A stretch of DNA of 64,000 bases from an uncultured Gammaproteobacteria bacterium (GTDB taxonomy: Bacteria > Pseudomonadota > Gammaproteobacteria > UBA4575). Every line of letters starts with the position of its first letter. The stretch's first letter is position 1. The translations under genes and the position numbers were made by a program. The notes under the pieces were generated by a model that saw only the letters and a program-made list of their open reading frames with translations, did no database searches and had not been told where the DNA came from. The DNA lies in NCBI GenBank assembly GCA_963976865.1, contig CAXBLY010000002.1, positions 22,917-86,916 of the forward strand, in the 5' to 3' direction. Of this stretch, positions 1-10,020 are shown one piece after another.

Positions 1-1163
1 CTGTGCACGTAACTGACCCAGATCGTTTCCTAGCAAGACACCAATTTTTCTGCACATATTAGAGTTACCCATATCATTGGATAAGTCATAAAACATATCA
101 CGACCTTTTTGTACCCAACCGTCTGGATCTTTATATTCATTATCAATCAAGGCACGTGAGAGTCGCGCCAAAAGATTAGGAACAAGTTTTGGCCCGCTTG
201 ATTTTGCAACATGAAATGGAAGCCAGATATTCTTCAACCCTGGAAATTCCTGCATTGCCAGGTATTCCACTCGTGCATCTTCCAGCAACGAAACAAGTGC
301 CACTTGAATTGGCCTGAGTTCAGCCAAAGCAAACTTTTTAGTTGAATATTTCAGATGTGCGCCAGCATGAGCAATTCCCGCGCGAAATATGCTTTTCGCT
401 CGATCTTTTTTAAATCCGGGAAATACCTCTGGCATACTAATTACACCATTTGAGATTGATATGCGCCGAGACGATAGTGGAAGACTGGATAACGGTTGAT
501 CTCTTATTGGCGGTCTAAGATTCCATAACGAGATTAAATAAAGTTTAAGCTGGCGTTCAATATCTGTAAAAACAATATCGCCTGCTTCATGCCGCAACCA
601 CTTCTCAGCGTCAGAATCAGCAAATGAGAAATAACGAATCTGGCGTTGCACATTATCATCAGTCGATCGCAAGCCAGTGATGACCCAGGAGTGAAATTGC
701 TCTGATGACAGCGTCGAAATTATTTTTTTTGTATTTTCAAGAATATGGATAACTGATTCGGGCGCATTTTTAATAACGTTTATTATTGTGTTTAACCAGG
801 AGTCATATGCAGTGGTTGATTGAAACTCTTCAGCTACATATACCGACGCCACCGGTAGTAGTTCTGCTGTGGAACGACTAACCCGAATTGCAGCAATAGA
901 CACTGTATTTGCCAGGTTAATTACAGATTCCGGATGAATCACTGTTATCAGTTTTAAAGAATTACGGGCATAGGAAAGAGGAATTGATACTCCGTATCCA
1001 GCCTGATATAACTTCAAACAGGCATTTTCCCACCTTGTATAATAGTCTGGTGGAAAAACCTCTTTTCCCTGACTTAATAAATAGGCAAACCCTTTCTTCG
1101 GGTCGCCAGGTTCCGACTCCTGAGGTTGGGACGCATATTTACCTCGTGTTGCTGAAACAGCCA
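1..1163 (-). CDS. VWA-domain NorD/CbbO-like partner of the upstream AAA+ ATPase; only the N-terminal ~387 aa are in the window, which truncates the rest
   Basis: Minus-strand ATG at 1163 with no listed stop down to position 1, so the ORF track cannot close it. It sits 10 nt downstream of the CbbQ/NorQ-like gene, the usual position of the VWA partner. Reverse-complement translation MAVSATRGKYASQPQESEP... reads as protein. The family call is mostly from context. Confidence 0.45.
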
Positions 1164-1172
1164 TTTATCACC

Positions 1173-1970
1173 TCAGACACAAGCGGCGACTGCTGAACTG
1201 AGTGCATTGCGAACATCGTGATCATCTGTGATAGGTAACACCAATGCCACTTCACACGCATCTTTGATAGACACACCATTAGCAATTAATTGTGCGGCAT
1301 TAATTAACATTCGGGTAGAAGCACCCTCTTCAAGACCATGACCTTTCATATTTCTGGAACATTGAGAAATTTTCACCAACTTTGTGGCAATGCTTTTATC
1401 AACACCTGCTTCATATCCAATGATATTAGCCTCGACATCAGGATCAGGGTAGCCAAAGTCTATTGCTCCAAATCGTTGTTTAGTGGATTCTTTTAAATCT
1501 TTCAGAACGCTTTGGTAACCTGGGTTATAAGAAATGACAACCTGAAAATCCTTGTGTGCTTTAACGACTTCATTCTTCTTTTCCAATGATAGAATTCGAC
1601 GATTATCTGTTAATGAGTGAATCACGACACTGGTGTCTTGTCTCGCCTCAACAATTTCATCCAGGTAACAAATAGCACCATATCGAACTGCCAGTGTTAA
1701 TGGGCCATCGTGCCAGACAGTACCATCCGCATCCAGCAGATAACGGCCAACTAAATCTGACGCTGTCATATCTTCATGACAAGATACTGTGATTAATGGT
1801 TTTTTGAGCTTCCAGGCAATATATTCAACAAATCTTGTCTTACCGCACCCGGTTGGGCCTTTAAGCATCATTGGCATTCGGGTTTGATATGCTGCTTCAA
1901 ACAACTCAATTTCATTATGAGTCGATGAATAATATGGCTCTACGTCTATTAAATAGTCATCTAGATTCAT
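1173..1970 (-). CDS. MoxR-family AAA+ ATPase, CbbQ/NorQ/NirQ-like
   Basis: 265 aa, Walker A GPTGCGKT, Walker B LDEIVEA, and the size typical of CbbQ/NorQ. Lies immediately downstream of the amidase gene on the same strand. Confidence 0.85.
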   Translation of the reverse strand: MNLDDYLIDVEPYYSSTHNEIELFEAAYQTRMPMMLKGPTGCGKTRFVEYIAWKLKKPLITVSCHEDMTASDLVGRYLLDADGTVWHDGPLTLAVRYGAICYLDEIVEARQDTSVVIHSLTDNRRILSLEKKNEVVKAHKDFQVVISYNPGYQSVLKDLKESTKQRFGAIDFGYPDPDVEANIIGYEAGVDKSIATKLVKISQCSRNMKGHGLEEGASTRMLINAAQLIANGVSIKDACEVALVLPITDDHDVRNALSSAVAACV

Positions 1971-2073
1971 ATTAATTATCCAGGAACATATTCATTTTGA
2001 ATAACATGCAATTTTGTACCAAACAAAGGTGAAGATGTTTTTCAACATCTTCACCTTATTTGCGTTTAAAGAA

Positions 2074-7943: not shown

Positions 7944-8229
7944 TTCACACCCTCCAAGTCAGATAGATCTTAATGACACTAAATTTCAACCCTGACTGAT
8001 TGGACAACGTGACTTACTTACTGACACATATGCAATAACCGTAATTAAGCAGCTAACACTGGATGACGGGGCGGTTAAAGTACGTAGAGTGGGAATGAAT
8101 GAGAAGTAGAAGGTACAATACTCCCCCGAACCGTCGTGATAACGCGGTTGCAGGGTTTTCTTAAGGCTTTGTTGCCTTAGCTTTTAAATGGCGATGCTGC
8201 CATTCACCTTTTGCAAGGATTTTTAAATC
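7944..8229 (-). promoter_or_regulatory. Leader region between amiR and urtA with two tandem hexaloop hairpins, a candidate ANTAR antitermination target
   Basis: On the minus-strand transcript: AAUGGC-AGCAUC-GCCAUU (8204 down to 8187), an 8-nt linker, then AAGGC-AACAAA-GCCUU (8178 down to 8163). These are two hexaloop stem-loops just downstream of the ANTAR regulator gene and upstream of the regulated transporter and amidase genes. The loops lack the canonical G at loop position 4, and no clean intrinsic terminator is visible. Confidence 0.35.
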
Positions 8230-8853
8230 CTAACTGAATAATTCCTGAGCGTCAATGATGTTACTGGCAATTGAACCGATCGTAACTCTTTGCTCCATCG
8301 CCTGCTTGCGCATGAATAGATAGGCTTTATCTTCAGTCACATCCATTTGCTTCATCAAGACGATTTTGGCACGTTCAATATTTCTTAACGACACCAGATT
8401 CTCATCAAGTTGATGAATGCGTTTACGTAATCGCTGCTCATAAGAATACAGGCTTCTTGCCACGATTAGACTTGATATAACAGCCTGCTCAGTCACAGGT
8501 AAATGGATTGTTCCATGAGGTGCACAGTGTTCCAGCATGGGATAATCCAGATATCCTGTAGATGGAATTATCAGAATTAATGCAAATTTAGGAATTCCAG
8601 GCAACCCTTCCAGTCTGGCTGGTAAATTATCAAGCATAGAACAGTAAACAACATCATAGTCGGATGGAATGAGTTCCGGCGGCGGCCATATATGTTTAAC
8701 TTCAGCGCGGGTATTCTGGACAGCAGTGATTAGCAGTTCGCTTCGGTCATCCCTTGGTGCAATGATTGCGATCCTTAAATCTTTAAATTTATGGTGTCTG
8801 TCAGATACTTTATCGAGTTTTATTCTATTCTCTTTACTCATTCTAGAATCCAC
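8230..8853 (-). CDS. amiR: AmiR-type response-regulator-like antiterminator with a C-terminal ANTAR domain
   Basis: 207 aa. C-terminal ERAKIVLMKQMDVTEDKAYLFMRKQAMEQRVTIGSIASNII matches the ANTAR RNA-binding domain. The AmiR size and the position after the amiC-like gene both fit. Confidence 0.8.
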   Translation of the reverse strand: MDSRMSKENRIKLDKVSDRHHKFKDLRIAIIAPRDDRSELLITAVQNTRAEVKHIWPPPELIPSDYDVVYCSMLDNLPARLEGLPGIPKFALILIIPSTGYLDYPMLEHCAPHGTIHLPVTEQAVISSLIVARSLYSYEQRLRKRIHQLDENLVSLRNIERAKIVLMKQMDVTEDKAYLFMRKQAMEQRVTIGSIASNIIDAQELFS

Positions 8854-8865
8854 AGAATTACTCAG

Positions 8866-10020
8866 CTACAATAAATTGGTATTACAGAAATCCCTATTTG
8901 CACCATAAGCTAGCAAATATGGATCTGCGCACACCGCTGATTTAGATTCAAACAGGACATCAAATAAACCTTTGCAATTGGCTTTGCCTACTCGTGACCA
9001 CACATTTGCATGACCACAGGCTCCATTGATCGTCACATTACCCTGAGGCGCTTTCACATCCGCACCAAGCACACTTGCACGAAGCGTATCTGAAGATAGG
9101 GAATTGGCTATTTTCAGTGCCTCTGTAAACATGTTTACCTGAAAATATGCGGTTTCCACACAGACATTAGTGGGCTCATCTGCACCATAAAGTTCTTTGT
9201 ATTTTTTAGTGAATGAGTATCCAGCCTCACCACCAATGCCTTCGAAGTACGATGCCGCAGTAATATGCCCTTCGCCGACATCGTGTCCCATTGCACGAAT
9301 TTCTGCTTCCGTCGTTGTCAGGCTGGCGATAGGCATTTTATTGGGATTAAAACCAAAATCTGAATAACTTTGATAGAAGTCTGACGTAGAGCGGCCGACC
9401 ACTGTGGAAAATATTACATCCGGCTGCATGTTTTTGATATCTCTTAAAATCGGAGTGTAATCCTTATGCCTGGCATTAAGCTCAAGGTATTGCTCTCCAA
9501 CCACATCACCACCATTACTGATAATAAATTCCCGCATGATCCGGTTGGACACACGTGGATAAACATAATCAGATCCTACAAAATAAAACCGCTTGCCATA
9601 ATGAGTCATTAAATAATTACATAACTCGATACAGTTCTGGTTTGGTGCAGCACCGGTGTAAATTACATTTGGTGAGAATTCAAAACCTTCATATACTGTA
9701 GGATACCAGAGCAACCCATTTAAACGTTCAACTACAGGTACAACTGCTTTTCTACTACTTGATGAATAGCAGCCAAATATTGTACTAATTCCATCTTCAA
9801 CCATTAAGCGTTTAGCATAGCTACCAAAAGCATTTGCATCTGAACCCGGGTCATAGCAAACGGGTTGTATAGGTCTGCCATTCACTCCTCCCAGATCATT
9901 GATTTCCCTGATCGCCATTAAAGTGCCTCTTAACTGAGTCTCTTCAATGACAGCCAAGGGCCCTGTTGTTGAAAACAGTACACCGACTTTCCAGGGTTCA
10001 GAGGTTTTATTTGATATCAT
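8866..10020 (-). CDS. amiC: AmiC-type cytoplasmic amide sensor (no signal peptide), negative regulator partner of AmiR
   Basis: 384 aa, no leader peptide. Clear paralogue of the UrtA binding proteins in this window (KVGVLFSTTGPLAVIEETQLRGTLMAIREINDLGGVNG, VYPR, IFSTVVG). Directly upstream of amiR, as in the Pseudomonas ami operon. Confidence 0.8.
   Translation of the reverse strand: MISNKTSEPWKVGVLFSTTGPLAVIEETQLRGTLMAIREINDLGGVNGRPIQPVCYDPGSDANAFGSYAKRLMVEDGISTIFGCYSSSSRKAVVPVVERLNGLLWYPTVYEGFEFSPNVIYTGAAPNQNCIELCNYLMTHYGKRFYFVGSDYVYPRVSNRIMREFIISNGGDVVGEQYLELNARHKDYTPILRDIKNMQPDVIFSTVVGRSTSDFYQSYSDFGFNPNKMPIASLTTTEAEIRAMGHDVGEGHITAASYFEGIGGEAGYSFTKKYKELYGADEPTNVCVETAYFQVNMFTEALKIANSLSSDTLRASVLGADVKAPQGNVTINGACGHANVWSRVGKANCKGLFDVLFESKSAVCADPYLLAYGANRDFCNTNLL

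Follow-up and report, generated by a model that had tools for sequence, protein, structure and literature searches.

The DNA analyzed here is a stretch of 64,000 nucleotides (nt) from an uncultured member of the Gammaproteobacteria (GTDB lineage UBA4575; GenBank assembly GCA_963976865.1, contig CAXBLY010000002.1, positions 22,917 to 86,916), the whole of which is referred to as the window. At positions 10020..1 ten open reading frames (ORFs) were identified, all on the minus strand, in the transcriptional order amiC, amiR, a gene for a substrate-binding protein, urtB, urtC, urtD, urtE, amiE, cbbQ and a gene for a VWA protein. Together with the RNA leader between amiR and the binding-protein gene, they are likely to form a cassette for the sensing, uptake and catabolism of amides, most likely acetamide or other short-chain aliphatic amides, in which AmiC and AmiR control the leader and the leader has a likely promoter of its own.

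Genes of the amidase cassette

Gene identities were assigned with Pfam and NCBIfam models, the NCBIfam equivalog cut-offs being applied, and they agree with the co-directional amiC-amiR-urtABCDE-amiE-ATPase-partner cluster described in the initial annotation, which had been made from the letters of the DNA alone. The intergenic gaps, in the order of transcription, are 12, 286, 85, 3, 14, -8, 49, 103 and 8 nt; all features of the window described below lie on the minus strand unless stated otherwise.

The first gene (8866..10020) encodes an AmiC-like cytoplasmic amide sensor of 384 amino acids with a Peripla_BP_5 domain (442 bits), which scored 286 bits against Pseudomonas aeruginosa AmiC (1PEA). 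Its N-terminus, MISNKTSEPWKVGVLF, is without a signal peptide. The second (8230..8853) encodes an AmiR-like antiterminator in which the AmiR_N (PF21332, 40 bits) and ANTAR (PF03861, 49.5 bits) domains both exceeded their cut-offs, and which aligned to AmiR chain 1QO0_D over residues 23-200 with 58 bits. The start of amiR is ambiguous: the first in-frame GTG, at 8853, gives a product of 207 amino acids, while public gene calls use the ATG at 8841 and a product of 203 amino acids, to which the database protein P0001 is identical. Among AmiR relatives the N-termini are highly variable, with 0-45 extra residues.

Downstream of the 286-nt spacer (8229..7944) lie the genes for a five-component ABC importer. 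The first of these (6693..7943) encodes an exported UrtA/FmdD-like substrate-binding protein of 416 amino acids with a Peripla_BP_5 domain and a Tat-type signal (TRRSFIK). It is followed by permease genes of the urtB type (5732..6607; TIGR03409, 325 bits, cut-off 250) and urtC type (4613..5728; TIGR03408, 352 bits, cut-off 296) and by ATPase genes of the urtD type (3846..4598; TIGR03411, 331 bits, cut-off 304) and urtE type (3158..3853; TIGR03410, 306 bits, cut-off 286). No gene for an AmiS/UreI-type channel was found in the cassette, so that the Urt/FmdDEF-type importer stands in place of this channel, as had been noted initially.

The gene amiE (2074..3108) encodes an aliphatic amidase of 344 amino acids (NF009802, 719 bits, cut-off 427), which scored 652 and 628 bits against the solved aliphatic amidases 2PLQ and 2UXY, respectively. 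The motifs FPEYS, YRKI and CDDGNYPE are present, and equivalents of the catalytic residues E59, K134 and C166 were visible in the 2PLQ alignment. The proposed logic of an AmiC sensor, an AmiR antiterminator and an AmiE amidase is supported. Directly after amiE there is a hairpin of 14 bp (2026..2057). Strong hairpins of 10-14 bp, varying in sequence and often with a U-rich tail, were found directly 3' of the amiE stop codon in every locus examined, namely the window and the amiE-cbbQ spacers of L001-L006, L012, L016, L017, L021 and L025. This hairpin is probably an internal partial terminator or a 3' stabilizer which separates amiE from cbbQ, the VWA gene and the gene beyond it, and probably sets amiE apart from lower-expressed downstream genes.

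The last two genes within the window encode a MoxR-family AAA+ ATPase of the CbbQ/NorQ type (1173..1970; 265 amino acids; AAA_5, PF07728, 114 bits; CbbQ_C, PF08406, 104 bits) and the first 388 codons of a CbbO/NorD-like protein (1..1164), the frame of which is open to the window edge. A Joint Genome Institute (JGI) metagenome contig (L008) that is 100% identical to positions 1-18000 of the window was used to read past this edge. On L008 the CbbO/NorD-like protein is 766 amino acids long and carries a VWA domain, and the next gene is that for an acetyl-CoA synthetase (acs). The operon extends beyond the window edge to acs. The part of the frame inside the window (1164..1) gave no match to a Pfam family. 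The VWA domain is encoded outside the window, past position 1, so that the label of VWA partner given initially could not be verified from the window; it is correct on the evidence of the identical contig.

The AmiR-like protein has about 30 close relatives among 5.8 billion proteins. The same gene order was observed in every related locus of sufficient length, and this recurrence means that the arrangement is not due to chance. The loci, gammaproteobacterial and with AmiR 55-70% identical, come from 7 metagenome-assembled genomes, from 4 contigs of metagenomes and from several assembly contigs. Plasmid pRsp8C3a of Rhizobium etli 8C-3 carries the identical 11 genes including acs, and Labrenzia sp. 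THAF191a has the same order as far as the VWA gene. In Roseateles sp. XES5 a cytosine permease and hydrolase pair is inserted between amiE and cbbQ, and an unannotated Ciceribacter replicon shows the same series of ORFs with two extra ones between amiE and the VWA gene. In Aestuarium the stretch from the binding-protein gene to the VWA-partner gene lies downstream of an ORF matching AmiR. Smaller modules were found on Brucella anthropi p3 (amiE-cbbQ-VWA-acs) and on Paraburkholderia aromaticivorans pBN4 (L031, 3402-8973; amiE-cbbQ-VWA-amiC-amiR). Two plasmid amidase operons, from Klebsiella sp. KOS9 and Pseudomonas veronii Yu15, were described in 2026 (PMC13209695): one contains amiC and amiR, four genes for an ABC transporter, and amiE, and the other has amiE, amiC and amiR together with genes for a CbbQ-type ATPase and a NorD-like protein, the roles of which were called unclear there. 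The locus had been described initially as composite. As a one-off arrangement this was not borne out, since it is a conserved and widespread module which is annotated on RefSeq plasmids and parts of which appear in PMC13209695.

Two relatives deviate at the end of the cassette. In L020 (8092-10158) cbbQ is truncated (227 amino acids) and the VWA gene has been lost, and in L017 (11129-11688) a gene for a UT-family urea transporter follows the VWA gene where acs sits in the others. In addition, a pair of genes for an NCS1 "cytosine permease" and an alpha/beta-fold hydrolase adjoins amidase clusters on three unrelated replicons (L021 8241-10637; L024 18730-21129; L031 548-2974) and may be a second uptake and hydrolysis module for amides or related substrates.

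The CbbQ/CbbO-like pair

The name MoxR ATPase, under which the cbbQ product was first entered, is correct at the superfamily level and can be made more precise: the protein scored 412 bits against CbbQ (5C3C) and 284 bits against NorQ, and the Walker motifs GPTGCGKT and YLDE can be read in its sequence. Its identity to the Rubisco-linked CbbQ proteins of Nitrobacter and Cereibacter is 65-71%. The partner protein, as read on L008, has its VWA domain at residues 578-743 with the MIDAS motif DISHS. It is 33% identical over 757 amino acids to the carboxysome-linked CbbO of Nitrobacter, scored 126 bits against NorD, and is 42% identical to the amidase-linked protein of R. etli.

Neither Rubisco genes nor nor genes, which would encode the known clients of such proteins, are present in the cassette, in which the neighbors of the pair are amiE and acs. 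An ATPase about 70% identical to CbbQ beside a VWA protein only 33% identical to CbbO and 42% identical to its R. etli counterpart is consistent with a conserved motor whose adaptor is specific for the client, and the fact that amiE, cbbQ and the VWA gene stay together in operons of different layout suggests AmiE as this client. The pair probably matures or reactivates the amidase. Going further, we tentatively propose that it is a dedicated "amidase activase", that is, an AAA+/VWA remodeler of the Rubisco-activase type which would be recruited via its diverged VWA adaptor to mature or rescue the metal-free nitrilase-superfamily AmiE, and which would occupy the slot of P. aeruginosa AmiB.

It is conceivable, if somewhat unlikely, that the pair is unrelated to the amidase and has been carried along with it, serving another client such as nitric oxide reductase, Rubisco or urease. 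The high identity of the ATPase to Rubisco-linked CbbQ speaks for it, a close homologue of the pair adjoins urease genes in Ancylobacter, and the relative L020 does without the VWA gene and with a truncated cbbQ. Against it, the order amiE-cbbQ-VWA is kept in the 11-gene cassette, in the four-gene module of Brucella and in the Paraburkholderia module, where the regulators follow, and the adaptor is closer to the amidase-linked protein of R. etli than to CbbO.

The Ancylobacter locus (L028, A. polymorphus pB, 4501-9795) has an ATPase 67.5% identical to that of the window, and the pair is convergent to ureD, ureG and ureC. It is another context in which a chaperone of the CbbQ/VWA type lies beside a nitrogen-releasing hydrolase.

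Leader RNA and transcription start

ANTAR proteins bind RNA targets consisting of two short hexaloop hairpins with A at position 1 and G at position 4 of the loop, the second of which competes with a terminator (Ramesh et al., PMC3369931). Judged from comparative evidence, the spacer between amiR and the binding-protein gene carries a predicted leader of this ANTAR-type, dual-hexaloop kind. Where the leader is predicted to begin, or close to that point, minimum free energy folding gave a hairpin P0 (CCUUGCAAAAGG, 8207..8218), which is represented by CCUU/AAGG, CCUG/CAGG and CCUC/GAGG variants in relatives of the gamma clade. The first hexaloop hairpin, P1 (UGAAUGGC-AGCAUC-GCCAUUUA, 8185..8206), is of the ANTAR type. 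Its 5-bp core is paired in all 15 homologous leaders, with compensatory changes at three pairs and a covariation score of 0.324, a value that neither shuffles (0.189±0.028) nor slid partners (0.118 or less) attained. The loop of P1 in most relatives reads A-A-[AC]-G-[AG]-N. The second hexaloop hairpin, P2 (UAAGGC-AACAAA-GCCUUA, 8162..8179), is stable, with 7 bp; its GGC/GCC core is conserved in the gamma clade, with weak covariation. The loops of P1 and P2 are spaced by 25-26 nt in the gamma clade and by 23-24 nt in the alpha- and betaproteobacterial loci. Scans with the AmiR profile gave only 7 genome loci and 4 metagenome loci; the close family is small, and the covariation analysis has the limited power of about 15 sequences.

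A covariance model of P1 and P2 matched the 64-kb window exactly once, at 8207..8155, within the spacer. Applied to loci on which it had not been trained, the model matched the R. etli locus both in the spacer between amiR and the binding-protein gene and upstream of amiC, and the B. anthropi locus directly upstream of amiE. In the window it detected neither a second ANTAR module nor one upstream of amiC. Rfam, searched at E<=5 for this region and at gathering thresholds for the window as a whole, gave nothing relevant; the sole hit was a chance microRNA match on the hairpin after amiE. The single covariance-model match and the compensatory changes in P1 place a predicted ANTAR-type leader in the interval 7944-8229, which had been singled out as the control point before these searches.

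Following P2 there is a stem-loop (CCCUGCAACCGCGU-UAUC-ACGACGGUUCGGGGG, 8123..8155; -17.5 kcal/mol), a candidate regulated terminator of non-canonical form. At the homologous position relatives have a hairpin with a U-rich tail which overlaps the 3' strand of P2, and in the alpha- and betaproteobacterial relatives P2 overlaps textbook terminators (GC-rich stem and U6-7), with two such modules in tandem. The predicted leader architecture of these latter relatives matches the published ANTAR mechanism (PMC3369931).

Several features of the window itself speak against so simple an assignment. In neither of its hexaloops, AGCAUC in P1 and AACAAA in P2, is position 4 a G; both carry A there, as they do at position 1. 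P2 and the stem-loop that follows it are separate and can form together, without overlap, and this stem-loop (8123..8155) is without a U-tract and was missed by two terminator scans. A generic pattern of two hexaloops beginning with A was not enriched in the window (12 occurrences, against 8.5±3.9 in shuffles), and the case for an ANTAR leader therefore rests on the comparative data. Intrinsic antitermination is clear in the relatives; for the window we infer it from them.

The two tandem modules of ANTAR dual hairpin and canonical terminator in the alpha- and betaproteobacterial cassettes lie between amiR and the binding-protein gene (L021 12556-12774; L024 12553-12824; L023 12607-12820; L025 2819-3040). 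Further modules occur outside this spacer (L025 805-854; L024 10470-10523; L021 8074-8128): in R. etli upstream of amiC, where Roseateles has a weak match at the same place (E=0.14), and in Labrenzia upstream of the "cytosine permease" gene which precedes amiC.

A promoter-like site was identified in the 3' end of amiR (8227..8255), with a -35 element TTGACG (8255..8250), a 17-nt spacer and a -10 element TAGGAT (8232..8227), which overlaps the amiR stop codon TAG. In a consensus scan the site gave 9 of 12 matches. The pattern TTGAC(G/T)-17 nt-TAnnnT is invariant in all 16 loci compared, from the gamma- to the alpha- and betaproteobacteria. The TAnnnT element overlaps the amiR stop codon in most of them and stands just before it in L016 and L017; TAGGAT of the window is replaced by TATAAT in L016 and by TACAAT in L017. 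Synonymous positions are constrained as well. The Asp codon within the -35 element is GAC in 16 of 16 loci, yet these genes otherwise use GAT for Asp more often than GAC (119 against 75), and the preceding Ile or Val codon ends in TT in every case (16/16). Of the 94 conserved codon columns that are degenerate, just 2 are monomorphic. Because the promoter-like motif is invariant in all loci down to its synonymous sites, the transporter and amidase genes probably have a promoter of their own and would not have to rely on readthrough from amiCR. The simplest reading is that a sigma-70 promoter is embedded in the 3' end of amiR, with a start of transcription probably near 8220, which would make P0 and P1 the first elements of a separate leader transcript, as in other ANTAR systems.

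In the version that goes back to the initial annotation, a promoter upstream of amiC would drive the whole locus as a single unit, in which the genes for the transporter and the amidase would be reached only by AmiR-dependent readthrough of the spacer. The gap of only 12 nt between amiC and amiR is in keeping with this, no terminator was called from the amiR stop codon to P1, and the leader begins directly after amiR. Such an exclusive dependence on readthrough is nonetheless rather improbable in view of the invariant TTGAC-17-TAnnnT motif and the constraint on synonymous sites at the end of amiR. In the alpha- and betaproteobacterial relatives, moreover, amiC has a separate ANTAR leader, which suggests units that are initiated separately. 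No consensus promoter match was found upstream of amiC (10021-10393) either, so that both promoters are putative. Transcripts reading through from amiC would meet the same checkpoint, and the embedded promoter and readthrough are therefore not exclusive. The initial proposal stands as regards where the control acts and of what type it is; transcripts probably do not arise by readthrough from amiCR, or not by this route alone.

The stem-loop without a U-tract leads to a second question, namely the kind of terminator that is regulated. Between the stem-loop and the binding-protein gene a C-rich, G-poor tract (8044..8113; 25 C and 7 G) was found, a candidate rut site. No other 70-nt stretch of the minus strand in the window has a C/G ratio as high as that of this tract, about 3.2 (median 0.82, 99th percentile 1.82), and C-richness after the leader stem-loop is conserved in the gamma clade. 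This tract raises the possibility of a Rho-dependent checkpoint, and the terminator gated by the ANTAR leader in the marine clade may be of the Rho-dependent and not of the intrinsic kind. Taken as the full explanation, AmiR binding would influence Rho-dependent termination within the C-rich tract, translation through a sequestered Shine-Dalgarno sequence, or both. Besides the missing U-tract and the extreme composition of the tract, it can draw on the Shine-Dalgarno region of the binding-protein gene (7944-8010), which is predicted to pair upstream (-20.3 kcal/mol, against -14.2±2.5 kcal/mol in shuffles), and on a preprint according to which ANTAR proteins can act translationally in actinobacteria (bioRxiv 10.1101/660928). 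We consider it doubtful nevertheless: the relatives have recognizable hairpin and U-tail terminators which overlap P2, C-richness alone is insufficient to prove a rut site, and the z-score of the Shine-Dalgarno pairing is modest.

Two short motifs were noted in the leaders of relatives. The motif ACUUCCCAAUCC occurs in L001-L005 and L014; a role as an anti-Shine-Dalgarno element was not supported, the duplex energies in L002-L004 being no better than those of shuffles. In L005, L006, L013, L014 and L020 the motif UUCAGGGCA lies about 40 nt upstream of the start codon and can pair with CCUGGAG.

Substrate, known systems and significance

The preference of the system was judged from its two binding proteins. 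Residues S85, Y104, T106 and Y150, the amide-pocket contacts of AmiC, have equivalents that are identical at all four positions in the sensor, based on the alignment to 1PEA, and the exported binding protein keeps them also. The two proteins are paralogues, 41% identical. Both also share Y/T/Y with AmiC at three further positions of the alignment; the corresponding residues are W/I/F in the three solved chains that were deposited as urea-binding proteins (7S6E, 7S6F and 8HIC) and W/V/F in 8TG1. Against the UrtA model the exported binding protein scored 405.7, under the cut-off of 492.75, while UrtB, UrtC, UrtD and UrtE pass theirs. Because of this shortfall the binding protein is regarded as divergent and probably amide-specific, and the importer as probably Urt-like machinery fitted with such a protein. 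Urease genes are absent from the cassette. The low UrtA score and this absence, together with the presence of amiE and acs, favor short-chain aliphatic amides over urea as the most likely substrate, with acetamide converted to acetate and then to acetyl-CoA.

The passing scores of UrtBCDE weigh against this preference and would be compatible with urea as a substrate. A system for urea scavenging, with a true UrtABCDE transporter, an AmiC-like protein that senses urea and an amidase as accessory nitrogen-releasing enzyme, is very unlikely all the same: these equivalog scores, the UT-family transporter gene in L017 and the ANTAR motifs reported upstream of urea transporters point to it, but the UrtA score, the AmiC-type Y/T/Y residues, the lack of urease genes and the fit of amiE and acs to an acetamide pathway all tell against it.

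In the mechanism that we propose, the AmiC-like protein would bind an amide in the cytoplasm and release AmiR, which would then bind the P1 and P2 hexaloop hairpins of the leader RNA in the spacer between amiR and the binding-protein gene. This would let RNA polymerase transcribe all that follows, from the binding-protein gene through urtBCDE, amiE and cbbQ to the VWA gene and acs. Initiation of the leader would most likely take place at its own sigma-70-type promoter, with the -35 element in the last codons of amiR and the -10 element overlapping its stop codon, and transcripts from an amiC promoter would encounter the same control. The Urt/Fmd-type ABC system would import the amide, AmiE, probably matured or reactivated by the CbbQ/CbbO-like pair, would hydrolyze it to the acid and ammonia, and Acs would activate the acetate.

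Among the closest known systems is the amiEBCRS operon of P. aeruginosa, with which the cassette shares homologues of AmiC (286 bits), AmiR (AmiR_N and ANTAR; weakly similar, 58 bits) and AmiE (628 bits to 2UXY), a leader with hexaloop hairpins upstream of the structural genes, and an ATPase gene beside amiE. Unlike in P. aeruginosa, the regulators are encoded upstream rather than downstream of the structural genes, it is a transporter gene and not amiE that follows the leader, the cassette has a five-gene ABC importer and no AmiS gene, and acs is included. The CbbQ and VWA pair stands in the place of AmiB, a likeness of position; P. aeruginosa amiE-amiB-amiC-amiR and the Paraburkholderia pBN4 module have the same layout, with the CbbQ/VWA pair at the AmiB position in the latter. 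Among the plasmid cassettes (Ciceribacter, Labrenzia and Roseateles) the closest AmiR proteins are 42-45% identical to that of the window. The alpha- and betaproteobacterial cassettes have two or three ANTAR modules, compared with one in the window, where the terminator is non-canonical. The importer resembles FmdDEF of the Methylophilus methylotrophus fmd cluster and cyanobacterial UrtABCDE, which are transporters of high affinity for urea and short-chain amides, in being a five-component HAAT-type ABC importer with UrtB to UrtE above cut-off; it differs in that its binding protein falls under the UrtA cut-off and is AmiC-like at the three aligned positions, and in that it is linked to AmiE and not to urease or FmdA. 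With the Rubisco activase CbbQ-CbbO and the nitric oxide reductase maturation factors NorQ-NorD the pair has in common an ATPase about 70% identical to genuine CbbQ and a full-length homologue of CbbO/NorD that ends in a VWA domain with a MIDAS motif, whereas its genomic partner is a metal-free nitrilase-superfamily amidase and not Rubisco or cytochrome-type nitric oxide reductase (cNOR).

Upstream of amiC (10394-14089) lie a RimB-like/Zn_protease gene on the minus strand and, on the plus strand, genes for a RimK-type ATP-grasp ligase that carries a TrkA_C domain and for a deacylase of the AstE/AspA family, followed by Ser/Thr kinase and metallophosphatase genes. These neighbors are not conserved beside the cassette in the relatives.

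The cassette is of a known and fairly ordinary kind, found in many proteobacteria, and the amidase-linked CbbQ/CbbO-like pair, already flagged as unexplained in the literature (PMC13209695), is the sole element with real potential for discovery. A promoter over the stop codon of the regulator gene, with the RNA target of the regulator directly after it, would be a compact design which could be reused in synthetic amide-inducible switches. Neither this design nor the CbbQ/VWA linkage overturns current understanding. If functional, the amiE-cbbQ-VWA linkage would extend remodelers of the CbbQO/NorQD type to a new class of clients and might explain the long-unexplained AmiB. For the uncultured marine gammaproteobacteria represented in the Tara Oceans and JGI metagenomes, the locus indicates that they carry a complete, horizontally shared cassette for the use of small amides as sources of nitrogen and carbon.

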